From the IMG/VR virus record IMGVR_UViG_3300044844_000428: a stretch of 64,000 bases of DNA. One strand, given 5' to 3'. Below are positions 4,478 to 58,219 of the stretch, one piece after another. The stretch's first letter is position 1. Each line of letters opens with the position of its first letter. The DNA is from a virus. The notes under the pieces were generated by a model. It saw only the letters and a list, made by a program, of their open reading frames with translations. It was not told the DNA's origin and made no database searches. A program made the position numbers and the translations under genes.

Positions 4478-4951
4478 TCAGCGTGAATAGTAGTTTACAG
4501 TAAAGTCATCAAATTCTCTAATATTGTACTTTTCAAATTCTGACGGAACATAAAAAGTAATATCACCTTTGACTTCTAACTTCATTCTTGATACAATAGC
4601 AATCCTACAATAAGCTATAAGAGCAAGATATATCTCACCTCCACCACAAATCATAAAACTTACTGTTGGATTACATTGAGCATAAGTCAAGAAATTATCA
4701 ATTGTCATGGTAGTAAATCCTGCTAATTTATAATTAGGATCTCTACTTAATACAATACAGTCACGCCCAGGTAATTTGCCAGTAGTTTCAGCAGTAATCC
4801 TACCCATAACTATAGTAGAACCCATTGTCGTATTTTTGAAGTGTTTAAGTTCTTCTCTGCAATGCCAAAGCATACCAGGAGTGTATGAGTCTCCAATAAC
4901 ACCGAATTTTGCTACTGCGGCAATTAAATATAAATTATCAAATGGCTTCAC
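4478..4951 (-). CDS. frd: dihydrofolate reductase
   Basis: GVIG..LWH, FKNTTMGSTIVMGRIT, LPGRDCIVLSR, ICGGGEIY. Confidence 0.9.
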   Translation of the reverse strand: MKPFDNLYLIAAVAKFGVIGDSYTPGMLWHCREELKHFKNTTMGSTIVMGRITAETTGKLPGRDCIVLSRDPNYKLAGFTTMTIDNFLTYAQCNPTVSFMICGGGEIYLALIAYCRIAIVSRMKLEVKGDITFYVPSEFEKYNIREFDDFTVNYYSR

Positions 4952-5937
4952 ACTGCAACCTCAGCTTTAATAGATCCAAGTGACCTGTAATCTTTAATTG
5001 TATAACTATATTCATTAATCTCATCAATAGAATTATAATGGTCATTGAATACCAACGTAGGTAATGCATATTCTGCAAGATTCCGCGATAGTAGTTCTTT
5101 TGTTTGGTTGATATGATTCTTATATAGATGAACATCACCAAATGAGATAATCAAATTCTCTGGTAACATATTTGTCAAATTGCCGAGTATTTCAGTGAAC
5201 AACGCATAACTAGCAATATTGTAGGGAACGCCTAAAAATATATCAGCACTTCTTTGGTATAAATGACAAGATAATCCATACTTAGGAACACCAACATTGT
5301 TCATTAGATTCTCATAGTCCCTATCATAACCAAGTCCAAAATGAGTACCAAAATATTTCTGGACATACAGAACTGCACGCTCGTTGAAAGACAATTGTCT
5401 GACACCAAACTGTACAAAAGCATGACAAGGCGCCAAAGCCATCTTACCTGATTCTACATTTTCCTGAGGCGTCAATTCTTCGCTTGGCAAATCAGCAACA
5501 TTCCATGCTGATATGATATGACGACGACTAAATGGTCTTTCTTTAAGACCACGGATAAGATTTTCAATTTGATCAATACCATCCATAGATTCTGTTGGCA
5601 TATTTGGAATAGGAACCGCACCCCAGTTACGCCACTGTTTACCGTAGATTGGACCTAAGTCACCCGATGGGGTTGACCATTCTTCCCAAATGGTTGGTTT
5701 ATCATTGCCATTCAATTTTCTTAAATCTTCATTATTTGTATACCCATTCAAGAACCACAATAGTTCGTTTGAGATTGTCTTGAATGAAGTAAACTTGCCA
5801 GTGAGCAATGGAAATCCAGATTGAAGATTGAATTTAAGTTGCTCACCGAAAAGTGAAAGAGTGCCAACTCCTGTCCTATCATTAGTTGGATTACCAGTTT
5901 CCATGATTTTCTGAAGAAGATCGTAATATTGTTTCAT
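4948..5937 (-). CDS. td: thymidylate synthase ThyA
   Basis: DRTGVGT, ELLWFL, GPIYGKQWR, MALAPCH, YQRSADIFLGVPYNIASY, DVHLYKNH. Confidence 0.97.
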   Translation of the reverse strand: MKQYYDLLQKIMETGNPTNDRTGVGTLSLFGEQLKFNLQSGFPLLTGKFTSFKTISNELLWFLNGYTNNEDLRKLNGNDKPTIWEEWSTPSGDLGPIYGKQWRNWGAVPIPNMPTESMDGIDQIENLIRGLKERPFSRRHIISAWNVADLPSEELTPQENVESGKMALAPCHAFVQFGVRQLSFNERAVLYVQKYFGTHFGLGYDRDYENLMNNVGVPKYGLSCHLYQRSADIFLGVPYNIASYALFTEILGNLTNMLPENLIISFGDVHLYKNHINQTKELLSRNLAEYALPTLVFNDHYNSIDEINEYSYTIKDYRSLGSIKAEVAV

Positions 5938-8026: not shown

Positions 8027-8695
8027 TTATTTTATCAAATGGAAATGTTTTTCATAAACATGAAGCGATGTTGCATTCCAGATAATATCACCGATTTCGC
8101 ATTGTACTCCACTCTCATTAAGACATTCATGCAATTCAGTATGGACGTGCTGTTGCCAATATAAGTCATTTTTATATCCAAAAATTGCATCATTTGACCT
8201 CATTTGTACGAATGCGTGAAGTTTATTATTTCTAATAAGATATTGAACTGTATTGGTGCAAATAAAATCAGACATTCCCATGGTTTCAAATTCGGCCCAA
8301 ATAGAAGGCCGGGTATAAATCATTATTGCTCTTCTAGAGAATCTATTTCTTACTAATTCTTGAAGTACGTTCTGGAATTGATAATGGTTTTCTCTTGAAT
8401 AAACACACCAACCATAATTAGAATTTATCATTCCATTTGCATCGGCAACCTGTTTCCACACTGCTGGAGTTTCACCTGGAATGTCATTAACGTTAAGAGA
8501 CATAGATTTGTACCATTCTATTTCTCTTTTAGCATAGTCTTCATTAAGAGTTCCAAAGATAGCAGGTTCACTAGCAATAAATGATGTTCCGACAATTTCA
8601 ACCATTTTGCAACCGGTCTTGTCTATTACAAATTCGTCATTTTCCAATAGTGACTTAAATTCATTTCTAATATCTTTTACGGAGTATTGTTCCAT
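8027..8695 (-). CDS. 42: dCMP hydroxymethylase (T4 gp42 ortholog)
   Basis: Near-colinear with T4 gp42: DKTG, REIEWYKS, DIPGETP, INSNYGW, SRRAIMIYTRPS, SDFICTNTVQYLIR, MRSND..FGYKND (Asp specifying cytosine), SLHVY. Confidence 0.95.
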   Translation of the reverse strand: MEQYSVKDIRNEFKSLLENDEFVIDKTGCKMVEIVGTSFIASEPAIFGTLNEDYAKREIEWYKSMSLNVNDIPGETPAVWKQVADANGMINSNYGWCVYSRENHYQFQNVLQELVRNRFSRRAIMIYTRPSIWAEFETMGMSDFICTNTVQYLIRNNKLHAFVQMRSNDAIFGYKNDLYWQQHVHTELHECLNESGVQCEIGDIIWNATSLHVYEKHFHLIK

Positions 8696-9108
8696 TATTT
8701 GTTCACTCCAATAATATTGCCAACGGGTTGTGTTCTGAATTTAGTAGGAATTAAGGCACGATTTTGTTGACCCGTCTTATTGAAAATATCTCTATCAGGT
8801 TGTTGACCATCGATTTCACCTCTCATGTATGAAACTAAGAATGATAAGTAATTGATTCCATCGATAGCAGAATCCTCTATAGATTCAAAATTGACAGATC
8901 CACCCGCTTCCATTGTTTCAATAACAGAAAACATTCGTAAGACTTTAGCATTAATAGTATCTAAAATACTATTGATTCCGTGAGGATAGTAATCTGCCTG
9001 CCTTACTCTTGATGCAGAATTCTGGTAATCATTACCTTTCTTAATTTGAAGAGCAATTGCTTCTTCTAATACTTCAACAGATTTACGTTTTGCTTCAGTC
9101 ATATTCAC
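8695..9108 (-). CDS. nucleotide-modification-associated alpha-helical protein (Nmad1/DUF1599-like, MazG fold)
   Basis: KKGNDY...K.LR...ESIEDSAIDGINY pattern; adjacent to gp42. Confidence 0.75.
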   Translation of the reverse strand: MNMTEAKRKSVEVLEEAIALQIKKGNDYQNSASRVRQADYYPHGINSILDTINAKVLRMFSVIETMEAGGSVNFESIEDSAIDGINYLSFLVSYMRGEIDGQQPDRDIFNKTGQQNRALIPTKFRTQPVGNIIGVNK

Positions 9109-9647
9109 TCCAGGGTTTTAATAATAATATTGTCATTATTGAATCGATGGTCATAATACCATCCTTCATTAAATTTTGATTGCTTGAAATTATCTGAGAA
9201 TTTCTTTGCATTAATAATCATGTAAAAATCTATTAAGTAAGAATCAACATTAGTTGCCATTGTAGCAGTTACCAAATAGTCTAGTGTTTGACAGTGCTTA
9301 AGAAATGTATTAATATTAGACTTTTGATATGTAAAATAGGAATTGTTAAAAGCATGTTTTTTTACTTCAAATTTCAAATCGTCCTTAATAACATCATATT
9401 TGTAAGACTCAGGATTAGTCTTATCGAATTTTAAAGGATTGCGTTGTCCATCAATAACATTAGCAAGAGCATACTCGATAGCAGTATACGCGCAGTGTTC
9501 ATACACTTGTTCAAATGATCTTTCCTTTCTCATGAAAGGTTTTTCAAAAATACTAGAAGCCATCAAATGGACATCATTATGAATAGTATCTTTGTTAATC
9601 TCAACTGTTCCAGCATCTTTTAGCATTAATGCTATTTTTCTAATCAT
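9105..9647 (-). CDS. denB: endonuclease IV-like (DenB) PD-(D/E)xK nuclease
   Basis: AIEYALA..NP.SYKYDV..KFEVKKH and C-terminal QSKFNEGWY align by eye with T4 DenB (YAEFFVA..DPYTYAWDV..RVEVKTH; KSNYNGWY). Confidence 0.7.
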   Translation of the reverse strand: MIRKIALMLKDAGTVEINKDTIHNDVHLMASSIFEKPFMRKERSFEQVYEHCAYTAIEYALANVIDGQRNPLKFDKTNPESYKYDVIKDDLKFEVKKHAFNNSYFTYQKSNINTFLKHCQTLDYLVTATMATNVDSYLIDFYMIINAKKFSDNFKQSKFNEGWYYDHRFNNDNIIIKTLE

Positions 9648-9696: not shown

Positions 9697-10689
9697 TTAG
9701 TTAATATTCCTATAAGCATATTCTATTGCTCTAGATGACTCGGTATGAAGAGGACGCTTAGAATAACAGTTAGAAGTATTTCTATCTAATTGTCGGATTA
9801 ATTCTTCCAATTGCACAGCATTCAATGGATACTTTCTTCTTATAGCATTACAAGCAATACTTGTCATGATTTTATACATCATCGCATATCTTCCAGAACC
9901 ATCGGTATGTGCTATAGAACTATACTCGTCAATCATTTTTTTATTTACGAACGGACAATCCTCATAAGAAGACCATGAATAATTCTTATGCGAGATTTCC
10001 TCAAGCATATCTGCTCTTTGAGCTAGTATCATTTTTTGAATATCTGACGGCATCTGTTCTAATATACTCAGAGGTCCTCGCGGTTGCTCATACTGATGAT
10101 TGAACATTAATCTATCAGGGTCTATAATCTCACCAATATTAGTAAAGATAAAATTATAAGCATTAGGATAAATCGCAGGCACGTAATACATTCTGGAAAG
10201 ATCCTTTGTTTGACCATCACCAAGATCGTCAAACTCTCTATTCAAGGCAAACCAAAAATGTTTTATCTTTTCCTTTTTAACAGAACCAGTTAATGGAAAT
10301 ACTAGTCTAAATTTAGGATGTTCTACCGTTGACCCTGATGTAGAATAGCATACAAAATAGGTCTTTCCATATTTCTCACTTAACTCTTCTTTAAGGTTTC
10401 CTTTAAAGACATGGTTATCAATATCAAGTGCAGCCCAACCAGACCATTCTACAACAGCATCATTAGAACGAGTTGTTCCTTCTCTATAAGAAGCTGGTGT
10501 GATTAAGGGAGAAGCCTTAACACCTTTAGGCGCTCTGAATTCTCCCTTCTTCAGTTTATAACCTGGAAGTTTTGACATGCCATATAGCATTTTCTCAAAA
10601 GACTCCCAGGTGTTATGGCTTACTTGACGGTGAGTTTTGTTGTCGTATATCGATGCAAAGGCCGTCAGAGAATACATATCAATCCGCAA
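9697..10689 (-). CDS. AEP-family primase/primase-polymerase
   Basis: AALDID, YSTSGS, KFRLVFPL, DLSRMYYVP motifs plus helical C-terminal domain; start probably MYSLT. Confidence 0.72.
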   Translation of the reverse strand: MRIDMYSLTAFASIYDNKTHRQVSHNTWESFEKMLYGMSKLPGYKLKKGEFRAPKGVKASPLITPASYREGTTRSNDAVVEWSGWAALDIDNHVFKGNLKEELSEKYGKTYFVCYSTSGSTVEHPKFRLVFPLTGSVKKEKIKHFWFALNREFDDLGDGQTKDLSRMYYVPAIYPNAYNFIFTNIGEIIDPDRLMFNHQYEQPRGPLSILEQMPSDIQKMILAQRADMLEEISHKNYSWSSYEDCPFVNKKMIDEYSSIAHTDGSGRYAMMYKIMTSIACNAIRRKYPLNAVQLEELIRQLDRNTSNCYSKRPLHTESSRAIEYAYRNIN

Positions 10690-11095
10690 ACACTATATCT
10701 AATAAACCAACATTATCTACATGTGATGGAGCAACCCAACCTTCTGGTTTAATTAGATCAGGTAATCCAAAAGGATTGGGTCTACCTTCCTTAATTCCTA
10801 CTTCTTTAACAATATTAGCATCATACACTCTTTGCCAGGCTTTAACAGAGTCAACCTGGTACACATCTAATGTACCTACTGCGAATACTATTAGATCTAT
10901 TAAGGCATCTACCGCATCATCAGCAGTTTCAGCGTGTTTAAGTTCATCTAATTCTTCCTGCAAACAGCCAATTCTAAAATCCAGAAATGCTGTTAATCTT
11001 TCTTTATCAAACTTATTAACTGCGGTGTTAACACCAAACTTAACGTGCATGTCAGAAATATCTTTTACAAAATTTGTACTCATATTAAACTCCAA
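10679..11095 (-). CDS. MazG-like NTP pyrophosphatase (dCTPase/dUTPase candidate)
   Basis: LQEELDEL...DALIDLIVF...ANIVK...KPEGW..P. Confidence 0.85.
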   Translation of the reverse strand: MEFNMSTNFVKDISDMHVKFGVNTAVNKFDKERLTAFLDFRIGCLQEELDELKHAETADDAVDALIDLIVFAVGTLDVYQVDSVKAWQRVYDANIVKEVGIKEGRPNPFGLPDLIKPEGWVAPSHVDNVGLLDIVFAD

Positions 11096-20028: not shown

Positions 20029-22755
20029 TTATCCGTGACAGGCTACACATTCGCCTTTATTAGTTTGAACTCCGCTTTCAGATCTAATATAATAAAGACT
20101 CTTAATATACGGATCCTTGAAAGCCATTTTATGTACTTCACTAATATACTGTTCAGTCTCATCTGAGCTAAAAAATAAATTAATGCTTTGAGCTTGATCT
20201 ATATATCTTTGACGACTTGATGCTAATCTAATAATATGCATTTGGTCAATTTCAAATGCAGTCTTAAATACTAGTTTCTCATGGTCATCTAACCATTCAA
20301 CATGTTGTACCGATCCTTTCTTGTTGATAATATCCTTTACGGTATCATCAGAATAGACACCACGTTCTTTCATTAACTTTAATAGAGTTGGATTAACTCG
20401 GTCAATCTTTCCTGCTGCCGTGTTTTGAACATATGCATTTTTATAAATTGGCTCTATGCCTTGGCTAACAGAACCACAGATTAAAGCGGAACTGAGATTT
20501 GGCGCAACCGCAATTCTATGAGTGTTTCTAACTCCATAACCTTTGCACCATTCAGGTTCGCCAAATTGTGATGCCATCCATTGAGAAGCTTTTAATGATT
20601 CTTCATTGATGTGTTTAAAGATTTCAGTATTCTTTAATTGGGCTTCAAACGATTCAAAAGCAATATTATTATCTTGAAGATACGTATGGAATCCTAATAA
20701 ACCTAATCCAAGTGCTCTGCTTTTCTCTGCAAATCTAACAACCTTTTCCATTCCACGAGTGTTTTTTCCAATCTCTATTAGATCTTGGTTAACACAGTCA
20801 AGGAAAACTGTGGCATCAAATACTGCTGTTGTATTTTTCCATTCATCAAAAAGTGATGCATTCATTGATGATAATACACAACTAAAGGTATGTTCGTCAT
20901 CTGAGAATAATTGTATTTCCGAACAATTGTGAACCAAAATTCCGGAACACTCAAGATAATTTTGATCCTGAGTTGATGTAATAATATTAAAGTTATGATT
21001 ATCTTCTACAGTTAAATCATATACAGATTCAATACCAACATATTCTATTTTTGTTACACATAATGATGTAACAGAAAATTGCAATTTATGGTTTGGTTCT
21101 ACATAATCCTTCTTAATGTATTCTTCCGGTTCAATATTATTTGTTACCATCCATCTTAAGTTTACAATAGAACCACCGAATCTATTTTTGGAAAAACTAC
21201 TAGGCATTCTTGAATCCAATTTCCCAAGATTCCCAAAGGTTATAGCGGCACCGATATCATATAAAGATTTTGCATATTCATATATCTCAATATTGGTTAA
21301 TCCCAAATATCTCGAATTACCAGATAACGTCATTGATATACTTTTATTAGCCAAATATGCTTCTTCATCTCTTATTTTAAATGCTGCATTATTTTTACCT
21401 GAAACTTCAATTGAGGTTTTCAGTCGATGTTCAGATGCTTCTAATAATTGCAAATTCTCAATAGAATCATCCGCATTATTTTCTATATGATCGATATGAA
21501 AGCCATCCGGAACATCACCATAATTATAACGCCATATCAAAGAATGTTGTTTAGCATGTCCATTTGACATACTATTGATATGGCGATACTTTCTAGTATT
21601 ACCCAAAGAAGTATAGAACGGTTGAAGTGGTTTTCCTATTGATAATGATGCTTCAATATAAGTACCGTCTTTAAGAGCAATAGCATGATCTGGTGTACAT
21701 TTGAACGAAGATCCATCTGATAGAGTTACTTTTATAAGTTTTTTCTCGCCAGTCTTGAAAGCAATAGCAGGTTTTATTTCATTTACCCATATTTTCTTAT
21801 TGCTATTCCATCTTGAAGAATATACAGGAAATCTACCAACTCCATTTGATTCTATTGCTAATTGTTCTATAGATACGGCATTTCTGCCATCGGCAACAGC
21901 AACAAGAGTGTCACCGGAAAAACACAAGTTGCTTGCTTTTACTGTAAGACCCAAGTCTTTATACATTGCAGGATTTTGTTCGTTAACTTTATCAATGAAT
22001 TCAAAATAACCTTTTCCTGTAATCATTTTTAATTTCAATGCCTTTTGATATCTTTCAATAGCATCTTTATCTCCATCATCTAGTCTTTTAATAAAATCAT
22101 TACTAATATTCCAACCAATATTTGCATCATCTGGTTGTTTATTAATATAATTGACTAATTCATGGAAATCTGGATGATCAATTTCTATATAACCTGCCCA
22201 AGCTCCGCGTCTTTGACTTCCTTGGCTAATGTCTCTTGACATTTGAACAAAGTCTTTGAATACTGGAAGAACTCCAGACGAACTTCCTTTTATTCCAGAT
22301 ATTTTAGATCCTCTTGGTCTGATGTCACCTAAATAACCAGAAGTTCCAAATCCATTTTTTGATAATACCGCAGCTTCCTTTTGTGATTCATAAAATGAAT
22401 AGACAGAATCACTAATGAATCCGCCTGAGCATGATACAGGACATCCAATACCAGTTCCCATATTAGATAACACAGGCGTTGATGCTGCTAACCAACCATT
22501 CCATAATAAGTCAAAGAACTTTAATTCCCATGTTGCTGGATCATTAGTATATGTTGCCGCGTGTTTTGCTATTCTAGAATATACAGACTTCAAATCAGTA
22601 TATTTGTTTGAAAGATAATTTTCTTTTAGCATTTGCCATGCGGCAGTAGTGCACCAATGGGGAAGAGAACCATTCTCTTGTAGTAGTTTACGTTCTTCAC
22701 CTAATTCTTCATAGATTGATAATTCTCTTACCATTGAAATTTTCCTTCTGACCAA
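20029..22755 (-). CDS. nrdA: class I ribonucleotide reductase alpha subunit, intein-containing, no ATP cone
   Basis: PVSC, RRGAWA, SNL[intein]CSE, LGLGLLG, APNLSS, SLYYIR, ECVACHG; start probably MVRELS. Confidence 0.95.
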   Translation of the reverse strand: MVRRKISMVRELSIYEELGEERKLLQENGSLPHWCTTAAWQMLKENYLSNKYTDLKSVYSRIAKHAATYTNDPATWELKFFDLLWNGWLAASTPVLSNMGTGIGCPVSCSGGFISDSVYSFYESQKEAAVLSKNGFGTSGYLGDIRPRGSKISGIKGSSSGVLPVFKDFVQMSRDISQGSQRRGAWAGYIEIDHPDFHELVNYINKQPDDANIGWNISNDFIKRLDDGDKDAIERYQKALKLKMITGKGYFEFIDKVNEQNPAMYKDLGLTVKASNLCFSGDTLVAVADGRNAVSIEQLAIESNGVGRFPVYSSRWNSNKKIWVNEIKPAIAFKTGEKKLIKVTLSDGSSFKCTPDHAIALKDGTYIEASLSIGKPLQPFYTSLGNTRKYRHINSMSNGHAKQHSLIWRYNYGDVPDGFHIDHIENNADDSIENLQLLEASEHRLKTSIEVSGKNNAAFKIRDEEAYLANKSISMTLSGNSRYLGLTNIEIYEYAKSLYDIGAAITFGNLGKLDSRMPSSFSKNRFGGSIVNLRWMVTNNIEPEEYIKKDYVEPNHKLQFSVTSLCVTKIEYVGIESVYDLTVEDNHNFNIITSTQDQNYLECSGILVHNCSEIQLFSDDEHTFSCVLSSMNASLFDEWKNTTAVFDATVFLDCVNQDLIEIGKNTRGMEKVVRFAEKSRALGLGLLGFHTYLQDNNIAFESFEAQLKNTEIFKHINEESLKASQWMASQFGEPEWCKGYGVRNTHRIAVAPNLSSALICGSVSQGIEPIYKNAYVQNTAAGKIDRVNPTLLKLMKERGVYSDDTVKDIINKKGSVQHVEWLDDHEKLVFKTAFEIDQMHIIRLASSRQRYIDQAQSINLFFSSDETEQYISEVHKMAFKDPYIKSLYYIRSESGVQTNKGECVACHG
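20926..21924 (-). mobile_element. 333-aa intein with HNH endonuclease domain
   Basis: Begins CFSGDTLV, block B CTPDH, HNH-like HIDH..N..NLQLL..H, ends VYDLTVEDNHNF...VHN/C. Confidence 0.92.
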
Positions 22756-23720
22756 TTGCGACTATAATCATTACCTTGACTTGAAAAGAAGTCATGTAAA
22801 GTTGAGCTTTCAATATCTTTATAGAACCAAGTTTTAATTGGGTTATAAGATGGTTTAAATATTCCATTATATGAAAGATTTTCTAGACAAATATCTAATC
22901 TAGATTCAACAAAGTTTTTTAGTTGGGTGTTTGTTATTCCTTTAATATGACCCTTCTCAAAAATTTTATCAATAATAATTGATTCGTGCTCTAGAATAAC
23001 TCTTGCAGTTTCTATCAATTCTTCTTTGAGGCTAACTAATTCGATAGAGGTCAATTGTTCATCGGCGAAAGCTTCTGACTTTAATGTTCTGAATAACCAT
23101 GCGCCTGCTTGTGAATGTAAGGTTTCATCAATTGCTGAAAAATTTATTCCAGCATTTATATTGATGAGTTTATTTTTTCCTGCCGAGTTGAAATGTTTAA
23201 GAAATGCAAATGAACTATAAAGAATAGCTCCTTCAATCATTGAAAACACTCCAACCGATTTTAGGACATTGTACACAGAATCTTTTTTAGTAGTTCTTTT
23301 TGCAATCCAATTCATTCTATTGGCTAGTACTTCATCTTCTTTGTAAGAGTTATAAAAGTCAACATTATCTAATCCAAGAACCTCGTTGATTTTATTATAG
23401 AATGGAGCATGTACTCCTAATTCCATAAACGAGAAGGTAGAGGCCATTCTTTGAATATCTGGTCTAGGAAAGACTTTACTGACATAATTTTGCCAGTAAT
23501 CGTTACCAACATTTAATTCATATAGAGTGAATAATTTTAGTGTTGATATTACGCCATGATACTCTGCTTCTGTGCAATTCGTCTTCAGATCATGAAGATC
23601 CTTTTCTACTTCAATTTCATCTGGAAACCAAATTATTGATGCCTGTTGTTCTGAAAATTCTATAGCAGTTGGATAATCAGTAATATATTCACTCTTTGGG
23701 CTTAAGATTCTAATAGCCAT
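22728..23720 (-). CDS. nrdB: class I ribonucleotide reductase beta subunit
   Basis: WFPDEI, ELGVHAPFY, EGAILYSSF, DETLHS, DFF. Confidence 0.93.
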   Translation of the reverse strand: MAIRILSPKSEYITDYPTAIEFSEQQASIIWFPDEIEVEKDLHDLKTNCTEAEYHGVISTLKLFTLYELNVGNDYWQNYVSKVFPRPDIQRMASTFSFMELGVHAPFYNKINEVLGLDNVDFYNSYKEDEVLANRMNWIAKRTTKKDSVYNVLKSVGVFSMIEGAILYSSFAFLKHFNSAGKNKLININAGINFSAIDETLHSQAGAWLFRTLKSEAFADEQLTSIELVSLKEELIETARVILEHESIIIDKIFEKGHIKGITNTQLKNFVESRLDICLENLSYNGIFKPSYNPIKTWFYKDIESSTLHDFFSSQGNDYSRNWSEGKFQW

Positions 23721-23821
23721 GTATTCCCCTGTGTGTCATGTGATTCCTTACAATATGTAAATTATGTATGTTATTACTATGGAAGCAATTAATGGAATTA
23801 ATAGTTGATGCAACAAAAGTT

Positions 23822-24136
23822 TCATTTTACTCCGAACATTGATAAATCTGGTGAGATTGAGGATCCTTCTTTATAATTTTCCATTTCATATTTTGTATGC
23901 AAATTAGAATCCAAATCTTTAATGAATTCAGAAATAGATTTAGAAATTCCGCAGTTAAAACACTTATAAAGAAATTTGTGGTGTTTCATGTATATATTTC
24001 CGCGAGTCTTCTTTGGATTCTTTACAGAATCACCACAATAATTGCAAGAGAATCTCCAAGCAGAATCATTAACTTGTTTAAAATTTCTAAGTCTCGATGA
24101 CCCCAATAGGATATATTTTTTATCGGTTTTTATCAT
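23822..24136 (-). CDS. stand-alone gp61-type primase zinc-binding domain
   Basis: FSCNYCGDS..KKTRG...YKCFNCG...YEME; ends after 104 aa with no TOPRIM domain. Confidence 0.8.
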   Translation of the reverse strand: MIKTDKKYILLGSSRLRNFKQVNDSAWRFSCNYCGDSVKNPKKTRGNIYMKHHKFLYKCFNCGISKSISEFIKDLDSNLHTKYEMENYKEGSSISPDLSMFGVK

Positions 24137-24885
24137 AATGAATTTTCCAATTTTGTCAATTCTTCAATACTATTAAACGACTTTGTTGGGTACTCAGTAA
24201 TATAACAATTTGCTGGGTAATTAATATTTCTTAAATAATGAAGAATATGTAAGAAATTTAATTCTTTTGATTGAGTAATGTATTGTCCATTTTTCCATAA
24301 CACTTCATGCATTTTTTGAAGACTATCATATATTACAGCGTTATTGATATAGAATATAGACTGATCGTGGAATCCTTCCATATGAGTTTCTCCAAGTTTA
24401 GAGAAGTCTGCTGATAATGCGTTCATATTAGAATCAGTCAATATAGTAACGTAAGGATTCTTTTCAGTGCATACCGGAATTACTGCGCTTGAAAAGTTAT
24501 TACCAGTAGAACTTCCAACATCTTTCAATTCTTTGAATATCATTGGGCTATCAATATAAACATCGCCCCATACCAATATAGAATTGTTATATTGATGGAC
24601 ATTCTTATACATGGAAAGAATTGCATGTCCATCTCCTAGTCCCGAATTTATAGGAATTAGATTTATTTTAATATCAAATTCATTATTATCCAAAAATTCT
24701 TTAAAACTTTTTACTGCAGAATCTTTAATTACTAAATCTATAGAGTCAAATACTTCGGACTCTATAGCATTAGTAATAATTCTTTTTAAATTAGGAACTC
24801 CATTTACTGGATATAATACTTTTGGAACATTAATGTTTCCCATTCTTTTGCCGTTTCCAGCAGCTATAATAATTAAATTAATCAT
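24133..24885 (-). CDS. nucleotidyltransferase (GlmU/NTP_transf-like)
   Basis: IIAAGNGKRMG..PKVLYPV, GLGDGHA, VWGD, SFNS.EEL. Confidence 0.88.
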   Translation of the reverse strand: MINLIIIAAGNGKRMGNINVPKVLYPVNGVPNLKRIITNAIESEVFDSIDLVIKDSAVKSFKEFLDNNEFDIKINLIPINSGLGDGHAILSMYKNVHQYNNSILVWGDVYIDSPMIFKELKDVGSSTGNNFSSAVIPVCTEKNPYVTILTDSNMNALSADFSKLGETHMEGFHDQSIFYINNAVIYDSLQKMHEVLWKNGQYITQSKELNFLHILHYLRNINYPANCYITEYPTKSFNSIEELTKLENSL

Positions 24886-26590
24886 CTTTTCCCAATAGAA
24901 TTGCTAAGTACATGTTAGTATCTTTGACATCTTTAACTGGTATAAAATTGCAATGTCCACATTGTGATATTTGGTGGTCATTGCCAGATTCACCTTCATC
25001 ACCAATATAAGTAAAATCATTAACGAATAGAGTTTCTGTTGCTAAAATTTTATCCAAGTTTGGTTTTGTAATGTCAATCGTTGTTCTTCCAGACATTCTA
25101 ATTAATAGATCGTATTTGCTTAGTTTAGATTCTAATAATAATTTAATGCTATGTCTGTATTCAGGAGATATTGGTTTGATAGAAATCATTACCTTTCCAC
25201 GTATTTGGATTTTAGTAATATCAATTCCACAGTCTACAATATCTGCCGTAATATATTCTATATCATTTTTAGAGAAAAGTAAATCATTATCTAGGCATTT
25301 TTCGAATTGCGGAATTCCTTCTTTATTAAATTTGTATAGATTAACACCACCATCTGCTAATGCTTTAATATTAGAAAAATTTCCATGCAAAGCATTGATA
25401 GTATTTCCAGTAGATATCCAAACATTATTAGTCTTATTATAAAGTTCTTGAACTCTTTTGACATTGGATTTAGATACTTTAGAGTGCTGCGAGCCTCTAG
25501 CAACAATAGTATCATCATAATCGAAAACGTATTGGTCACTAATCTTTGGGTAATTATAATAGTGGTCAAAAATAGTTTTTACCAATGCCTTTCCGTCGTG
25601 TTTACCCTGATTAAGTAAGAAAGCTGAGATTTTTTGATACGAATCCGGGATTAATAAAGGGTCACCATCTAAAGCAGAAATGATAGTAGTATCTTTTGGT
25701 AAATAATCCATAAGAATATTAATCAATTCGTCACCAGATACACCTTTCATATCAGCATCTTGACTAGCATTAAGAATTAAATATTTCTTTGCTTTCGATT
25801 CTGATATAGTTTCAGAGAATCCAATAGATTTATATGTTGGAATAAGAGATGACCACTGCGTCCCAGATGAAAAAATTATAATGTCTGCTGATAATATTAC
25901 AGATTTCGAAAGTTCTGATAATTCTGGAATTACTGGCTTATTATGGTTATCAACAAAGAAACAATCTACGATTTTATCATCGGGATTATTCCATGATACT
26001 ATATCAGCTTCGTCATGTATAATATAACCAGATTGTGTTTTAGCCATAAGATACATCGGAGAATCAGTATTAGAAATTACACTATTCTCTGGAATGTCTA
26101 ATATTCCTTCAAATACTTTTCCTGCAGAATCCAATGAATAGTTATGTTTCTTTGCTATTCCAGAATAAATGATATTAGAAATTGAAAAGTCAATATAATC
26201 TATCTGTGGCGATAACTGGCTATCAAAGAATTGATTCACTCCAGAAGCTAATACACCTCTATAAAACATATCAATGTCTAGTTTATGGATTCTGTCTAAA
26301 AGCACCGATTGGACTTCATCGGCAGAAATAGTTATTCTGTCATTTAGGAATTCATACAATTTTTCTGATATACTATTTTCCAGTTTTGCTCTTAGCATTT
26401 GATTCTTTCTTAAATCGGACGGACCCATAATTTTTCCATCCATAACTTTTCTGCATTCTCCAGTAGAAAGACCGTTATCCGCTAAGTTTGTAATGACTGT
26501 ATAGTCTAATACATCTTTACCAAAAGTTTCATATAGACCTTTCTGCAATTGAACTGAACCAGTTCCACCTGAAAATATTACGATTTTCAT
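24878..26590 (-). CDS. CofD/YvcK-family transferase fused to type IIB HAD (PMM-like) domain
   Basis: N: FSGGTGS, DNGLSTG, GPSDLRK, ADIIIFSSGTQWSSLIP; C: FDYDDT, STGN, GRTTIDIT..DK, IGDEGESGND. Confidence 0.85.
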   Translation of the reverse strand: MKIVIFSGGTGSVQLQKGLYETFGKDVLDYTVITNLADNGLSTGECRKVMDGKIMGPSDLRKNQMLRAKLENSISEKLYEFLNDRITISADEVQSVLLDRIHKLDIDMFYRGVLASGVNQFFDSQLSPQIDYIDFSISNIIYSGIAKKHNYSLDSAGKVFEGILDIPENSVISNTDSPMYLMAKTQSGYIIHDEADIVSWNNPDDKIVDCFFVDNHNKPVIPELSELSKSVILSADIIIFSSGTQWSSLIPTYKSIGFSETISESKAKKYLILNASQDADMKGVSGDELINILMDYLPKDTTIISALDGDPLLIPDSYQKISAFLLNQGKHDGKALVKTIFDHYYNYPKISDQYVFDYDDTIVARGSQHSKVSKSNVKRVQELYNKTNNVWISTGNTINALHGNFSNIKALADGGVNLYKFNKEGIPQFEKCLDNDLLFSKNDIEYITADIVDCGIDITKIQIRGKVMISIKPISPEYRHSIKLLLESKLSKYDLLIRMSGRTTIDITKPNLDKILATETLFVNDFTYIGDEGESGNDHQISQCGHCNFIPVKDVKDTNMYLAILLGKDD

Positions 26591-27399
26591 AATATACCCT
26601 TATTTTTTTCTGCAATAAAAATATAACATTCTGCAATCTTTGGATTTAGAAATGCTATCGTACTTGCCGCGAATCCTTGCGAAATACCTTTTAATTGGTT
26701 ATATAGAGCCATATTGTTAGAACTCAAATGCTTTTTAAAATATCTGGCTTTACCTAACCACCCATTGACTCTTCTGATACTTAATCCATTAGTGGTTATC
26801 ATATCATGCATTTCGTCCAAAGTAAACTCTTGAATGTGATTCTCTGGCCATACAAATTCTTGACCTTCGTCCTTTTTTGGATTAGGAGATGATATGACAA
26901 TAAATCCTCTATCTGATACCAATTCAGATGCTTCTTTTATAAGTTTCAATGCAGTTTCTTTTGGAATATGTTCTAGAATTTCCTGCAACAGAATTACGTC
27001 ATATTTGTCATGATGCTTAATGTCATGAAATGAAGTAGTATTTAGATCACATTGAATGACTTTGTATTTGTTGACAGATTCTCTTCCAGTTGGGGTATTT
27101 GCTTCATCTACAACAGATTGTTCATATTCTAAACCTAAGTAATCCACTCTGGGACGCAATAAACTTTCAAAACTTTTAGACCAAAATTGATAGAATGTTT
27201 TATTGCCACACCCAACATCTAATATAGTAACATAATCTTCAGTATTTTTTCTTTTGATTTTGGTAATTTCTGTGCATGTTGAAGTATATCTGCTAATGAA
27301 TGCAATATGCCATGCACTGGAAAATTTTATTTTACCAAGGAATCCATTTTTAAAAAATACTGCTGAACTGTCATCAAATACGTCTTTTTCTTGTTCCAT
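26587..27399 (-). CDS. class I SAM-dependent methyltransferase
   Basis: ILDVGCG, YLGLE, DVILLQEILEHI, VISSPN, HIQEFT. Confidence 0.9.
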   Translation of the reverse strand: MEQEKDVFDDSSAVFFKNGFLGKIKFSSAWHIAFISRYTSTCTEITKIKRKNTEDYVTILDVGCGNKTFYQFWSKSFESLLRPRVDYLGLEYEQSVVDEANTPTGRESVNKYKVIQCDLNTTSFHDIKHHDKYDVILLQEILEHIPKETALKLIKEASELVSDRGFIVISSPNPKKDEGQEFVWPENHIQEFTLDEMHDMITTNGLSIRRVNGWLGKARYFKKHLSSNNMALYNQLKGISQGFAASTIAFLNPKIAECYIFIAEKNKGIL

Positions 27400-27400
27400 A

Positions 27401-28507
27401 TTATACCTCCAAAAGTTTTACAAAGTTTAAACAATATTCTGATTTATTAAAATCTACACATGAATGTTGAAGTTCTATTAGTGATTCGTAATCAGAATCT
27501 GACAATGATTTGAATCTATCTGTGAATTGATTTCTGTCATTGATATATAGCAAATTGGAAAGTTCAGTATTGTTTCCAAAAATTCTTTTATTCTTATCAA
27601 ATTCGTTATCAATGAATAACAAAGTTCCCGCCATAATAGATTCATATACTCTTTGAGAGATCATTTCAAAATCTGGGTATTGATTATCACCAATAGCAAT
27701 ATGCGTTTTAGAAGAAGACATTTTCTGAATCATATTATTATAATCAACTGGAGGAAGAAACTTTGGCGGACGTAATCCAGTTACTCTTTTCTCATTAAAG
27801 TCCGTAATTTTAATTTTACCGAATACTTCTACCGAAATATCTTCTGGGAGTCCAAAATAGAATTCTATTAATTTCTTTTCTCTTCTACCAGATCTAAAGG
27901 TTCCTCCATAAGACAAATCAACAGTCTTTCCTAGAATAGAAGTTTCTCTTGGTTTCATCATTGGGAATTTTTGGAAATCATATTGCACAATAGATTCTAC
28001 AGGATATCCATTTTTCTCAAATAGTGCTTTATTTTTTTCTAAATTGTATGATTGCGAAATCACATTAATAGGCTTTGTAATATTAATATCTTCCTTATTC
28101 CAATTTGAAGCCCAGAGTTTCTTCTCAATAGAAGGCCAGATTTGTTTTAGAGATAAATTCGGGTCACAGTACAAGTAAATGATTTTTCCATTAAAGTTGT
28201 TTATTGCTTTATAATTAAGAATCTGTGGTCTGTCTTCTTGGCCACCAAAGAAATTAACAGCACCATTAATGACTACTAATGCATCGTATACATTACTGGT
28301 AATATTCTCATAATGGTCTTCAATATTAAACACGTTGACTGATCTGTTTTGTTGATCTGAAGACAATACCTTAGTATAACAGTCAACTTCACATCCACCT
28401 TCAACCATCATTTCTATTAAAGAAGCAGCTTCACCTGATCCTCCGCTTGATCCGACCTTTTGGCCAAAAACAATTCTTGCACCTAATTTCAATACTGCTA
28501 ATTTCAT
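27401..28507 (-). CDS. bgt: DNA beta-glucosyltransferase-like (T4 Bgt, GT-B)
   Basis: YDALVVINGAVNFFGG, YLYCDP (catalytic Asp equivalent), YGGTFRSGRREKKLIEF, IGD..Y, RVYE, IDNEFD all match T4 Bgt. Confidence 0.92.
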   Translation of the reverse strand: MKLAVLKLGARIVFGQKVGSSGGSGEAASLIEMMVEGGCEVDCYTKVLSSDQQNRSVNVFNIEDHYENITSNVYDALVVINGAVNFFGGQEDRPQILNYKAINNFNGKIIYLYCDPNLSLKQIWPSIEKKLWASNWNKEDINITKPINVISQSYNLEKNKALFEKNGYPVESIVQYDFQKFPMMKPRETSILGKTVDLSYGGTFRSGRREKKLIEFYFGLPEDISVEVFGKIKITDFNEKRVTGLRPPKFLPPVDYNNMIQKMSSSKTHIAIGDNQYPDFEMISQRVYESIMAGTLLFIDNEFDKNKRIFGNNTELSNLLYINDRNQFTDRFKSLSDSDYESLIELQHSCVDFNKSEYCLNFVKLLEV

Positions 28508-28538
28508 AGATCACCCTTTGTAGTAGAATAAAGATTAT

Positions 28539-28567
28539 ATTATATCATATTTTTGATATTTGTACAC
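28539..28567 (-). promoter_or_regulatory. promoter of the bgt operon
   Basis: GTGTAC-N17-TATAAT. Confidence 0.7.
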
Positions 28568-28637
28568 ACTATTTAGCAAATTTTACTCGTGACACAGCAT
28601 CACCTATAAAGTGATAACTGTTGAATTATTTTAGGGA

Positions 28638-28700
28638 ATAATGTTTACTTTTGACTGGGTTTGATGTATAATAAATTAACTGGTCTTATCAATACTAATT
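28638..28700 (+). repeat. antisense promoter-like element, copy 1 (copy 2 at 55597-55660)
   Basis: ATAATGTTTACTTTTGAC...TGATGTATAAT...TTAACTGGT.TTATCAATACTAATT shared. Confidence 0.85.
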
Positions 28701-28702
28701 TA

Positions 28703-29140
28703 TTATTTGAATAGTTTCAATATATCTGAATGGTCAATAAGGTATCCAATTACTAAACTTCCACCAATAACTATCCATTTCCATGTTTCTAATGCAGAAA
28801 GTCTATCAGAAATATCTTCTCTATATTCATCTGATTTTTCTTCATGTTCTTTAAGTTTAGATTCAATACGAGATTCCATATCATCTAACTTGTCAACAAT
28901 CTCTTTAGTAGTTTCTTCCATTTTCTTGTATAGATCCTTGACATCAGTTGTAGTTTCTTTATTATTATTCTCAAGATTGTTTAGTCTGTTGTCGTGTACT
29001 ATTAATAATCTTGATACTTCTGACGATGCTTTAGCAATTTCTGCAACTGTATTGTCTATCTTATAAACGACATTTTGGAGAACTGCCACCTCAGTTACCA
29101 GTCTATTGAGGTCATTACAGGGTGAATTGTGGTCACTCAT
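28703..29140 (-). CDS. coiled-coil protein with C-terminal TM helix, holin-like candidate
   Basis: Long coiled coil then WKWIVIGGSLVIGYLI; follows spanins. Confidence 0.5.
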   Translation of the reverse strand: MSDHNSPCNDLNRLVTEVAVLQNVVYKIDNTVAEIAKASSEVSRLLIVHDNRLNNLENNNKETTTDVKDLYKKMEETTKEIVDKLDDMESRIESKLKEHEEKSDEYREDISDRLSALETWKWIVIGGSLVIGYLIDHSDILKLFK

Positions 29141-29714
29141 TGTTCAAATCCTTTTGTTTTCTAATCCAATCTTGGAGTGATTTAAGTTGTTCTACTACTT
29201 GATAGTATGTACCGTAGTTTCCACTGACGGATTCAACAAGGGCAGAGAGTTTAATATCGGAGGGTCCTTCATGAGAAGTTCTGGAGGATTCGGGAACTTT
29301 GTTTTCTGCGGCAGCGTTGAGCAACTCGATAGCACCAGTATTGATACTACACTTAGCATCAGATTCTTTAGTAATATATTCAGGAACTTTCTTAATGATA
29401 ACATGAGTTTTGCCTTCCACTATTTTGACTTTTTCTATATATTCAGTAACAACTTTTGTCGTTACTTCAGCAGTTTTGGTTTCTAGTTGTGCAATCTGGA
29501 TTTGCATTTCCTTGATTTTTACTTGCCAGTTTGCTTCGTTTACCGAAACTCCTATCGCAAATGAATTCAGGCATAGTAACATGCCTAACCCAGAATACAG
29601 AGCCATCTTGTAATGAGCAGGAATTGGTATCAATACACCTAGAACAAGTCCTAAGAATGAGATGCCACTAAGAAGGTAGGTTAACCACTCAGGAATTAGA
29701 TTCAGTAGGAACAT
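29133..29714 (-). CDS. i-spanin (Rz-like)
   Basis: N-terminal TM segments, coiled coil, single periplasmic Cys, LQDWIR C-terminus. Confidence 0.75.
   Translation of the reverse strand: MFLLNLIPEWLTYLLSGISFLGLVLGVLIPIPAHYKMALYSGLGMLLCLNSFAIGVSVNEANWQVKIKEMQIQIAQLETKTAEVTTKVVTEYIEKVKIVEGKTHVIIKKVPEYITKESDAKCSINTGAIELLNAAAENKVPESSRTSHEGPSDIKLSALVESVSGNYGTYYQVVEQLKSLQDWIRKQKDLNNE
29195..29404 (-). CDS. o-spanin (Rz1-like lipoprotein) embedded in the i-spanin
   Basis: Lipobox LSSC then Pro-rich FPNPPELLMKDPP, alternate frame inside 29133-29714. Confidence 0.75.
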   Translation of the reverse strand: MLSLRKFLNILLKNLMLSVVSILVLSSCSTLPQKTKFPNPPELLMKDPPILNSLPLLNPSVETTVHTIK

Positions 29715-35557: not shown

Positions 35558-37252
35558 TTAGTCTCTGTTGATTGGATGAAGACGAGCATTTTCAATTTTT
35601 CTAATTTTAGGCACTAACTTCATTGCGGCTTTATCGATTAGTTTCTTTTTCTTAGCCACGATTCTTTCAATACGTTCTTTTTCTTGGACGGTCAATTGAC
35701 TCAAAGGTTTCCTTGCAAGTTTTGCTTTAAGTGCATTGATTGCGGCATTACGCGCTCGATGATTAATTCTTTGCGGACTAGAACGAGTATGCAAAGCAAT
35801 CTTCATCTTACGCATACGTTTACCTTGAGACTGTTTGAATCTTATAGCAGCTTTGATGCGTTCCATTCTTGATAATACTTCAGTAAGATATGATTCGTTC
35901 ATTCCATCTAGTTCTTTAACATGAGCAACATGGTTACCTTCATCGTCAACTACATGGAGTTCATCATCGTCATAGGTACTTAGAATATCTTCATCAGACA
36001 CTTTATCAACCATATCATCCAATTCGTCATCTGACATTTCAGAATCGTCTTCTTCAGAATCTTCATGTAATTTATATTTGATTTTCATTCTGCGTAAAGA
36101 GTCTTTATCTCCATTTGGTTCTATAGTACTTCCTACTCTACCATGGCCTTTACTTTCATCGTCAAAATCACTTTGAGTATTTTTTGAATCATCGGAATCT
36201 TGATCTTCTGGACCGCCATTATCATCTTCATCACCATCGTTTGGGTGAACTTGGTCTGGATTAGTAACTCTTTTTACTTTGGGTGAACTTACTAATTTGG
36301 ATGAATCTTCTTTTACTAATGCCGGCATAAGTTTCTTATCATACATGATTCCTGCTTCAGTGGCAGTATTCAGCATATTTTTAAGAATCTTTAATGAATC
36401 AGATTTTAATGGATTCTTTGAAAGTGTTTTGAGTGCCTTATTGATAAGTTCTTCTGGTGATGAAGAATCAGAATCAACACCAAGAGTACCAGCAACAATC
36501 TTGGCAATTTTTAGTTTGTCTGAACTTGAGTATGTCATTTCTTGTATTTTTCCTGCTGAATAAGAATCTTGGCTTCCATAATCGGATACTACTAATTCCA
36601 TTTTGTGATATGAATTCATTAAGTAATCTTCGTGATGAAGATAGACACCCAATCTTTTAAGAATATCCACGGCTACTTGTTGAGCTCTTTGGAATGTATG
36701 GAAATCGTCTATAGATAATGAACCCGATACGATGCTTTTTTGAATACCAAATGCTTGGTCAGTTGCCTTAATGGCATTAAGCAATGCTACGGGATCAATG
36801 TTCGGTGTTTGAGTTAATTTCGTGTATTCAAAGATTGCTTCTTTACTTATATCAAAATTCTTAGTAGTAAATCCTTTATATGTAACTTGGTTTGTTGTGA
36901 CATTACCAAAATCTTCTTTTAAAAGATTACTAGTTTCTTCATCAACCATCTTAACTTCTACAAGCCATTTGCGTTGTATATTACCATCAGAATCTGTAAC
37001 TGTAAGGTAATTGCTACCTCTACTAAGTATTTCCAAATATGTATCATTGGATTCAACTATATCTCCCACATTAAAGATTTCTCCGCGAAAGTATTGCTCA
37101 CGAATAGTATCTAATTCAGTGGTTTTTTCAAATTCGATATTTGGATTAGAATGCTTTGAATATGGAGAATTATCCAAAGACTCAATGAGATCAACCTTTT
37201 TAAAATCTATCTTATTAGTCTTTGGATTAAATAATGATTGGTATGTTTTCAT
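35558..37252 (-). CDS. large putative prohead/internal protein
   Basis: MKTYQS start, IREQY..GEIFNVGD, acidic middle, basic C-terminus; late promoter upstream. Confidence 0.6.
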   Translation of the reverse strand: MKTYQSLFNPKTNKIDFKKVDLIESLDNSPYSKHSNPNIEFEKTTELDTIREQYFRGEIFNVGDIVESNDTYLEILSRGSNYLTVTDSDGNIQRKWLVEVKMVDEETSNLLKEDFGNVTTNQVTYKGFTTKNFDISKEAIFEYTKLTQTPNIDPVALLNAIKATDQAFGIQKSIVSGSLSIDDFHTFQRAQQVAVDILKRLGVYLHHEDYLMNSYHKMELVVSDYGSQDSYSAGKIQEMTYSSSDKLKIAKIVAGTLGVDSDSSSPEELINKALKTLSKNPLKSDSLKILKNMLNTATEAGIMYDKKLMPALVKEDSSKLVSSPKVKRVTNPDQVHPNDGDEDDNGGPEDQDSDDSKNTQSDFDDESKGHGRVGSTIEPNGDKDSLRRMKIKYKLHEDSEEDDSEMSDDELDDMVDKVSDEDILSTYDDDELHVVDDEGNHVAHVKELDGMNESYLTEVLSRMERIKAAIRFKQSQGKRMRKMKIALHTRSSPQRINHRARNAAINALKAKLARKPLSQLTVQEKERIERIVAKKKKLIDKAAMKLVPKIRKIENARLHPINRD

Positions 37253-58120: not shown

Positions 58121-58219
58121 GATAGTTCCTTACGATGTTTGAACTATTTATATATTTACATTGTGGTAAGAATGGTGTATAATTATACTAATGGTGCTTT
58201 ATTGTTAAAGGAAATACTT

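Follow-up and report, generated by a model that had tools for sequence, protein, structure and literature searches.

A bgt-led operon in a stretch of viral DNA of 64,000 nucleotides (nt) (IMG/VR virus record IMGVR_UViG_3300044844_000428; here termed the window) belongs to a gene module that is conserved among phages. The module comprises the genes for a homolog of the DNA β-glucosyltransferase (Bgt) of phage T4, for a fusion protein predicted to join a YvcK/GlmR-like domain to a type IIB HAD domain, and for a predicted sugar-1-phosphate nucleotidyltransferase; the latter two genes are referred to as the cassette. Glycosylated 5-hydroxymethylcytosine (hmC) is a textbook phage counter-defence, and T4 Bgt relies on UDP-glucose from the host. 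For the operon of the window we favour, at somewhat better than even chances, the reading that it is a phage-encoded supply line, which provides a nucleotide-hexose for a dedicated clade of Bgt enzymes acting on hmC DNA.

A conserved phage module linked to one Bgt clade

Four minus-strand genes, coding for Bgt, a methyltransferase, the fusion protein and the nucleotidyltransferase, are tightly coupled between positions 24133 and 28507 (Table 1). In gene order from bgt the junctions are a 1-nt gap, a 4-nt overlap and an 8-nt overlap, and these agree with the original prediction, which had been made from the letters of this DNA and a list of its open reading frames (ORFs).

The family of the fusion protein has at least 530 members in metagenomes. 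A megablast search with the operon against the phage collection gave no match, and a tblastn search with the fusion protein against 50,697 phage records retrieved only the cultured jumbo Ralstonia phage RsoM2USA and one uncultured phage. RsoM2USA encodes a Bgt, a fusion protein and a nucleotidyltransferase with 48%, 41% and 35% identity, respectively. Its nucleotidyltransferase gene lies across the ends of the linear record, its module has no methyltransferase, and the published description of this phage contains no DNA-modification data. The gene order Bgt, optional methyltransferase, fusion protein and nucleotidyltransferase recurs in all four diverse long metagenome contigs, two of which have a gp42-like gene nearby, as well as in locus L091. 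The arrangement is kept from T4-like phages of approximately 140 kb to jumbo phages of 340-460 kb.

The linkage to bgt was assessed from both sides. Among 39 further IMG/VR loci found via the fusion protein, 32 carry bgt within 6 kb upstream. A reciprocal search with Bgt yielded 68 loci, where the fusion gene is adjacent in 37 of the 39 loci with at least 39% identity to the Bgt of the window, and in none of the 29 loci below this value. The original prediction had proposed as its own refutation test that homologs of the accessory genes never occur together with DNA-modification genes; by both counts, the cassette does so regularly. Bgt, the fusion protein and the nucleotidyltransferase are a conserved phage module. 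No literature was found that links CofD, YvcK, UPF0052 or phosphomannomutase to hmC or DNA modification in phages, and no paper was found that describes the cassette, in line with the earlier statement that this gene combination is uncharacterised.

A midpoint-rooted tree was built from 59 distinct Bgt sequences, comprising only those returned by the searches. A cassette-linked clade of 31 sequences (support 0.86) includes 29 that are adjacent to the fusion gene and one, from a 429-kb phage, that lies approximately 6 kb from it. The cassette-free sequences form a T4-type clade (15 sequences) and an environmental clade (13 sequences) with a support of 1.0, and none of these 28 has the fusion gene adjacent. 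In the genome G002 (locus L118; 154,347 bp with direct terminal repeats, 100% complete) the Bgt nests within the cassette-linked clade, and no homologs of the fusion protein or the nucleotidyltransferase were found in this complete genome, which points to an apparent loss of the cassette.

The environmental Bgt proteins (loci L129-L147) are 29-34% identical to the Bgt of the window and have no cassette; a divergent gp42-like gene (29-33% identity) lies directly upstream of their bgt.

The Bgt homolog

The Bgt of the window matches PF09198 with 102.7 bits (cut-off 27), phrog_7922 over residues 1-351 (E 6e-61) and the T4 Bgt structure PDB 1BGT (E 9e-42). It is 28.5% identical to T4 Bgt and keeps equivalents of the T4 residues E22, D100, R191, R195, Y261, R269 and E272. 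D115, R205, R209, R286 and E289, which correspond to T4 Asp100, Arg191, Arg195, Arg269 and Glu272, are conserved in the cassette-linked and the cassette-free clades. The domain match and the aligned residues bear out the description of a Bgt homolog with a catalytic Asp and UDP-binding Arg and Glu residues, and the protein is a predicted DNA β-glucosyltransferase of the cassette-linked clade. Compared to T4, Bgt proteins of this clade harbour the changes T99C and I101P beside the catalytic Asp, and also M240Y. The strict tie of the cassette to one deep Bgt clade with substitutions flanking the catalytic Asp hints that the sugar may be other than plain glucose.

The nucleotidyltransferase

The nucleotidyltransferase matches PF12804 and IspD at or above the cut-offs and NCBIfam GlmU models at 1e-11; within its signature AAGxGxR...PK, the residues A8, A9, G10, G12, R14 and K22 are invariant. 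Its structure model (mean pLDDT 94) resembles GlmU with Foldseek TMq values of 0.75-0.84, and VIA-align superimposes 236 of the 250 residues on GlmU 2QKX (Z 26.8, rmsd 2.2 Å). Glucose-1-phosphate thymidylyltransferase (4ECM) and UDP-glucose pyrophosphorylase follow with Z scores of 25.1 and 24.4. The Z scores of enzymes that act on alditol, inositol and phosphocholine substrates are lower by only 3-4 units. The modelled protein is a full two-lobed GlmU/RmlA-like sugar-1-phosphate enzyme, the substrates of which are predicted.

The original prediction had called this gene a nucleotidyltransferase and likened it to CofC. The call stands; because the enzyme has a complete GlmU/RmlA-type fold, the CofC analogy is weak, and a CofC-like reading was set aside on grounds of the fold (Z 26.8 for GlmU versus approximately 17 for small MobA/CobY-type enzymes). 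CofC itself is absent from the matches listed.

The fusion protein

The AlphaFold2 model of the fusion protein was built on 44 homologs and has a mean pLDDT of 94 and a pTM of 0.90. Residues 3-332 match the Pfam family PF01933 (CofD), which covers YvcK as well as CofD, with 77.2 bits (cut-off 30), and a weak HAD match is found besides. The family profile of the N-domain finds the UPF0052 structures 2PPV, 2Q7X, 2HZB and 2O2Z with E values of 5e-25 to 7e-18, as opposed to 0.22 for CofD 3C3D, and the fold agrees better with YvcK (2PPV, 2O2Z; Foldseek TM 0.76-0.78) than with CofD/FbiA (TM 0.62-0.68). The previous label “CofD/YvcK” is thus right for the superfamily, but within it the domain is nearer to YvcK/GlmR than to CofD. 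Its TIGR01826 score of 60.8 bits is below the cut-off of 196. Among the viral proteins in BFVD none matched the YvcK-like domain and only HAD matches appeared, and the clusters obtained in an Atlas feature search were all generic CofD clusters.

The motifs G-G-T-G and D-N-G-x-S-T-G of the N-domain align with the Staphylococcus epidermidis protein 2PPV. GlmR/YvcK proteins bind UDP-GlcNAc, show uridyltransferase activity and have a role in cell-wall precursor supply; D40, D41 and N198 are required for the uridyltransferase activity of GlmR (PMC10128056). At the equivalent positions the N-domain has an invariant D38, N39 (Asn as in staphylococcal YvcK) and an invariant Thr252.

The C-domain carries HAD motifs that are invariant in the 44 homologs: D357-x-D359-x-T361, G395-N396, K514 and G530-D531-E532...G536-N537-D538. 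Its profile matches phosphomannomutase (PMM; 7MYV, 1.4e-16) and α-phosphoglucomutase (α-PGM; 4BND, 8e-13), which also lead the matches by fold; matches to trehalose-6-phosphate phosphatases and Cof-type phosphatases are far weaker. A family profile was needed to place the domain: the HAD domain of the window alone gave chance hits only in a phmmer search against PDB, and the single sequence reaches 29.7 bits with TIGR01484, below the cut-off of 41.8. Of the arginines with which the PMM cap holds the distal phosphate, two align with R464 and R479; the loop with the third PMM cap arginine is deleted, and a conserved lysine, K472, is located nearby. The C-domain is predicted to be a HAD-IIB enzyme of the eukaryote-type PMM/α-PGM kind, and the PMM-like type IIB HAD read earlier from the sequence holds in view of these closest relatives and the full set of catalytic motifs.

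The methyltransferase

The methyltransferase scores above the cut-offs of PF13847, PF13489, PF08242, PF13649 and PF08241 (Methyltransf_31/23/12/25/11). The motifs LDVGCG (S-adenosyl methionine (SAM) motif I), QEILEH and SSPNPK are conserved, and weak matches to UbiG and Hen1, the nearest named relatives, lead to O-methyltransferases. Homologs in or near the module are found only in the window, in L046, L052, L079, L091 and L108 and in the P0026 contig, and close homologs also occur in phage contigs with no cassette nearby. The gene call as a class I SAM enzyme of the operon is correct; however, the gene is present in a minority of the modules and is not a core component. It is a putative optional tailoring enzyme, which would most likely O-methylate the sugar on the donor or on DNA.

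The cassette beyond Bgt

Seven phage loci found via the fusion protein have no Bgt. In three of them the cassette lies beside a gene for a TET-associated glycosyltransferase (TAGT; PF20691, E 1e-24 to 2e-37), which suggests that it may serve a second family of DNA glycosyltransferases unrelated to Bgt. L077 and L084 code for proteins of 297-300 amino acids (aa) upstream of the fusion gene, for which neither a Pfam match nor BLAST similarity to TAGT was found.

Adjacent genes for the fusion protein and the nucleotidyltransferase, at about 30% identity and without Bgt, are also present in 36 loci of bacterial assemblies, mostly metagenome-assembled genomes of gut Clostridia. These loci are polysaccharide clusters with genes for Wzz and kinase, family 2 glycosyltransferases (GT2), LicD, epimerase and flippase; in L029, L032 and L037 GT2, fusion and nucleotidyltransferase genes form a triplet. 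The pair is not specific to DNA modification, since it also occurs in bacterial polysaccharide loci by GT2 enzymes. In L043 (6305-8560) the CofD-like domain and the nucleotidyltransferase are fused directly in a protein of 751 aa that has no HAD match, and in L042 (7968-11393) a CofD-like gene (664 aa) is followed by a separate HAD gene (PF00702/HAD_2) and a nucleotidyltransferase gene. Such varied fusion patterns of three activities are typical of consecutive steps in one metabolic pathway.

The acceptor base

A close gp42 had been noted in the window (Table 1), and its product indeed matches structures of T4 dCMP hydroxymethylase (PDB 1B5E and others) with an E value of 2.9e-79. The protein keeps Asp at the position of Escherichia coli ThyA N177, which confers dCMP specificity, and at the position of ThyA D169. 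A D169N change marks 5-hydroxycytosine synthases (Lee et al., PMC13326640); given the Asp at this position, hmC is therefore predicted by the same signature. The cassette-linked thymidylate synthase (TS) homologs of RsoM2USA, L003 and L008 have the same two Asp residues, and the second TS gene of the window (4948-5937) has Asn, as an ordinary ThyA. 5-Hydroxycytosine was rejected as the acceptor, since Asp is retained at the D169 position in the TS homologs.

Genes for a dCMP deaminase, a DenB-like nuclease, two MazG-like hydrolases and a dihydrofolate reductase (DHFR) are located near the gp42 homolog. Together with these genes of nucleotide metabolism, the gp42 homolog would fit a replacement of cytosine by hmC as in T4. 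The gp42 homolog is flanked by the two MazG-like genes, of pyrophosphohydrolase type, and by the gene for a DenB-like endonuclease IV (8695-9108, 9105-9647 and 10679-11095 (-)); their products may take the place of the T4 dCTPase and of the T4 functions that degrade DNA containing cytosine.

A putative donor pathway and its alternatives

The proposed pathway builds on gene content, folds, catalytic motifs and co-inheritance, and all its substrates and products are predictions. The gp42 homolog would make hm-dCMP, such that the phage DNA would carry hmC, as suggested by the close homology. The HAD-IIB domain would convert a hexose-6-phosphate or a hexose bisphosphate into hexose-1-phosphate, from which the nucleotidyltransferase would form an NDP-hexose with an NTP, probably UTP because Bgt keeps the UDP-contact residues of T4. 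Finally, Bgt of the cassette-linked clade would transfer the sugar of the NDP-hexose to hmC in DNA, and the methyltransferase would add its optional O-methyl group.

The YvcK/GlmR-like N-domain may act in the same soluble pathway. It could be a sensor that tunes the mutase by binding the nucleotide sugar. It could also be an accessory nucleotidyltransferase, a role reported for Listeria GlmR, or a kinase for the anomeric position, where a kinase and phosphatase route might drive the flux. The heptose and arabinose routes would be a parallel for an anomeric kinase that feeds a HAD domain of bisphosphatase type.

The module serves Bgt, TAGT and GT2 enzymes with varied fusion patterns, and therefore is most simply viewed as a soluble pathway that yields a nucleotide sugar. 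The original prediction had left two options, the synthesis of a donor for Bgt or a phosphodiester-linked decoration of the glucosylated base. Because of the GlmU/RmlA fold, the PMM-like HAD domain and the polysaccharide loci, donor synthesis is favoured, and phosphodiester decoration is kept as the main rival. As the original prediction also proposed, either product might help the phage to evade GmrSD-type and CRISPR nucleases.

Several observations weigh against a supply line. A pathway of a mutase and a nucleotidyltransferase does not need a YvcK/CofD-like domain, and yet no other partner accompanies the nucleotidyltransferase as constantly as this domain, up to the direct fusion in L043, which mirrors the activate-then-transfer principle of CofC/CofD. 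The proposed catalytic residues of GlmR are only partly kept in the N-domain (one of the three residues mutated in PMC10128056). The DNA of phage SP-15, which contains a phospho-linked sugar, is a precedent for phosphodiester chemistry on phage DNA (PMC5977210). Co-inheritance with Bgt would be just as likely for a cassette that acts after Bgt, and since G002 has a Bgt of the cassette-linked clade and no cassette, such a Bgt can work on its own.

Some of these observations lead to a two-step hypermodification, which we regard as unlikely. Here, Bgt would put a hexose on hmC, the nucleotidyltransferase would make NDP-X, and the CofD-like N-domain would then add phospho-X from this donor to a hydroxyl of the DNA sugar with release of NMP; X would be hexose-1-phosphate or another phospho-compound from the HAD domain, and the methyltransferase, where present, would cap the product. 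CofD itself transfers from lactyl-diphospho-guanosine onto the ribityl hydroxyl of FO. Membership in PF01933 and the match to the CofD/FbiA fold agree with this scheme, as do the invariable adjacency of the CofD-like domain and the nucleotidyltransferase in phages and bacteria, akin to the pairing of CofD with CofC, the tight co-inheritance with one Bgt clade and the phospho-linked sugar of SP-15. The Bgt retained in cassette-free G002 would fit an optional second decoration. The sequence and the fold of the N-domain, however, are nearer to YvcK/GlmR than to CofD, and the nucleotidyltransferase is GlmU/RmlA-like rather than CofC-like. It would be unusual for a transferase acting on DNA or glycans to be fused to a sugar-phosphate mutase, and the cassette would have to recognise DNA sugars placed by two unrelated DNA glycosyltransferases plus envelope glycans of bacteria.

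In its boldest form, which seems to us quite improbable, the CofD/YvcK-like domain would be a DNA-modifying phosphotransferase of a new kind. With the NDP-hexose from the neighbouring enzymes as donor, it would transfer hexose-1-phosphate or another phospho-group onto the hmC sugar placed by Bgt or TAGT, followed by O-methylation in phages such as this one. If true, many uncultured phages would have a phosphodiester-linked, methyl-capped glycan on cytosine, of which no description was found in the literature.

Within the supply-line reading, the cassette might simply duplicate Pgm and GalU of the host and thereby boost UDP-glucose, allowing full glucosylation of hmC in hosts whose pool of UDP-glucose is small. 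The adduct would be ordinary β-glucosyl-hmC, and the methyltransferase would have nothing to do with the sugar. We consider this sub-case doubtful, and its share is contained in the weight given to the supply line as a whole. In its favour, the best matches include α-PGM (4BND) and UDP-glucose pyrophosphorylases, Bgt retains E22, D100 and every UDP contact of T4, T4 is generally known to depend on the UDP-glucose of its host, G002 manages without a cassette, and most modules have no methyltransferase. On the other hand, the cassette tracks one deep Bgt clade, whereas a host-dependent booster would be scattered among phages with Bgt. The bacterial copies reside in polysaccharide loci, which usually encode routes to non-housekeeping sugars, Bgt has clade-specific substitutions next to the catalytic Asp, and the conserved YvcK-like domain would have no role in a simple Pgm/GalU duplicate.

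It is also conceivable that the accessory genes alter sugar-nucleotide pools or the envelope of the host, for takeover or superinfection exclusion, and lie beside bgt by chance. The homologous gene pairs in bacterial envelope polysaccharide loci and the role of GlmR/YvcK in cell-wall precursor supply (PMC10128056) are compatible with such a function. The adjacency to the fusion gene, which separates Bgt loci so sharply at 39% identity, the substitution of Bgt by another DNA glycosyltransferase, TAGT, the translational coupling within the operon, and an arrangement that is conserved from T4-like to jumbo phages make it very improbable.

Relation to known systems

The window shares with the hmC glucosylation of T4 a close gp42 homolog, a Bgt with the catalytic Asp and the UDP contacts, and DenB-like, MazG-like, dCMP deaminase, ThyA and DHFR genes around them. 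It differs in that its Bgt belongs to a separate clade and that predicted mutase-like, nucleotidyltransferase and YvcK-like functions of its own are coupled to bgt; T4-type phages have no such genes beside bgt.

The genomes of phages RB69 and DLP3 supply a UDP-arabinose route, which includes a HAD phosphatase and a nucleotidyltransferase (PMC13326640). As proposed for the window, a phage-encoded nucleotide-sugar pathway, with a HAD enzyme and a sugar-1-phosphate nucleotidyltransferase among its members, serves a DNA glycosyltransferase that acts at cytosine C5. In contrast, the base in these phages is 5-hydroxycytosine, made by a TS homolog with D169N; they use an arabinose-5-phosphate isomerase as well as a kinase domain and have no Bgt. 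In the window the TS homolog keeps D169 (the hmC type), the glycosyltransferase is a Bgt, and the additional domain is YvcK/CofD-like.

The DNA of SP-15 bears glucosyl and phosphoglucuronolactone groups, and the corresponding gene cluster has an annotated PMM, a uridylyltransferase, glycosyltransferases and a phosphotransferase (PMC5977210). Unlike in the window, the modified base is dihydroxypentyluracil and the phosphotransferase is TagF-like; a fusion homolog of SP-15 is not among the matches in the phage collection.

YvcK/GlmR of Firmicutes (PMC10128056) is the best match of the N-domain in sequence and fold, including the GGTG and DNGxSTG motifs; the N-domain differs by its fusion to HAD, by Thr at the N198 equivalent and by its location outside a yvcJ-glmR-whiA operon. 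CofC/CofD (FbiD/FbiA) of F420 synthesis resemble the cassette by PF01933, by the constant pairing with a nucleotidyltransferase gene and by a fit to activate-then-transfer; the differences are the weaker fold match compared to YvcK, the CofD E value of 0.22 and the GlmU-like partner. The context of the cassette is glycosyltransferases, not F420 genes, for which no systematic search was made. Eukaryote-type PMM and Lactococcus α-PGM share all four HAD motifs, the cap architecture and two cap arginines with the C-domain, and differ by the third-arginine loop, which the fusion protein has lost, and by the joined YvcK-like domain.

Finally, TET/5mYOX-linked glycosyltransferase clusters contain partner epimerases that were proposed to adjust the sugar-nucleotide pool (PMC8256090; bioRxiv 2023.12.21.572611). 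TAGT-family genes, which belong to this setting, stand beside the same cassette in L069, L070 and L075; the two papers make no mention of a CofD/YvcK-like, PMM-like or nucleotidyltransferase partner.

Operon layout and other features of the window

The window is AT-rich (G+C approximately 32%) and T4-like by gene content, with a gp43-type DNA polymerase, a gp23-type major head protein, a gp46-like SbcC and a gp41-like helicase. The features discussed here are compiled in Table 1.

Table 1. Coordinates of the operon genes and associated features; positions refer to the window unless a locus is named.
Feature	Position	Strand	Description
bgt (Bgt, 368 aa)	27401-28507	-	DNA β-glucosyltransferase homolog (predicted)
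Methyltransferase (270 aa)	26587-27399	-	Class I, SAM-dependent (predicted); accessory gene of the module
Fusion protein (570 aa)	24878-26590	-	YvcK/GlmR-like N-domain and HAD-IIB C-domain (predicted)
Fusion N-domain, residues ~1-340	25571-26590	-	YvcK/GlmR (UPF0052)-like, CofD superfamily
Fusion C-domain, residues ~350-570	24881-25543	-	HAD-IIB, PMM/α-PGM-like
Nucleotidyltransferase (250 aa)	24133-24885	-	Sugar-1-phosphate type (predicted), like GlmU N-domain and RmlA
Zinc-ribbon protein (104 aa)	23822-24136	-	Primase N-terminal-like; overlaps the nucleotidyltransferase stop by 4 nt
gp42 homolog, dCMP hydroxymethylase	8027-8695	-	Predicted source of the hmC acceptor
Promoter candidate, sigma-70-like	28539-28566	-	TGTACA, 16 nt with extended -10 TG, TATAAT
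TAGT genes adjoining the cassette	L069:5289-6140, L070:5111-5992, L075:8433-9287		

A single promoter had been thought to drive the four genes. A candidate site indeed lies in the 195-nt gap upstream of bgt (28566-28539), but it matches the consensus at 10 of 12 positions only, and sites of this type are no commoner in the region than in shuffled sequence (39 observed versus 34.4 +/- 5.0). It is hence a candidate only, and a promoter upstream of bgt is plausible but unproven. No terminator-like site was seen in 23500-29200. Furthermore, the coupled run amounts to five genes rather than four, as the zinc-ribbon gene overlaps the nucleotidyltransferase stop. Its product matches phrog_451 and phrog_47 (primase N-terminal) and resembles the N-terminus of DnaG/gp61-type primases; in L007 a homolog is found upstream of bgt instead, and the protein is probably not part of the sugar module. 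A strong promoter-like site (TTGACA, 16 nt, TATGAT; 11/12) is present at 24159-24132, and an AEP-type primase-like gene is found at 9697-10689 (phrog_9765, 4e-63).

Elsewhere in the window, the large subunit of ribonucleotide reductase (RNR; 20029-22755 (-), 908 aa) matches RNR in two stretches and HNH endonucleases at residues 387-456, consistent with an HNH-type intein. Among the few plus-strand genes, 58139-59953 (+) codes for a homing/HNH endonuclease of 604 aa (phrog_3339, 2e-98); it directly adjoins the major head protein gene (60020-61363), and the GC skew is inverted locally. A protein of 564 aa encoded at 35558-37252 (-) has a weak “cytidyltransferase” match to phrog_395 (7e-9, residues 36-108) as its sole match.

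Implications for phage DNA modification

According to recent work, phages diversify their DNA sugar by donor pathways of their own, and hmC glycosylation with a phage-encoded donor has precedent. The cassette described here marks a whole Bgt clade, the phages of which range from T4-like to jumbo (340-460 kb), and it also accompanies some TET-associated glycosyltransferases. The YvcK/CofD-like family thereby gains a defined pathway context, which is common to phages and bacterial polysaccharide loci. If the cassette makes a non-host sugar, a widespread new DNA adduct and a new pair of DNA-labelling enzymes would be predicted, and if the CofD-like domain acts on DNA, the chemistry would be new. 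With RsoM2USA a cultured carrier is at hand, which makes the question directly testable.

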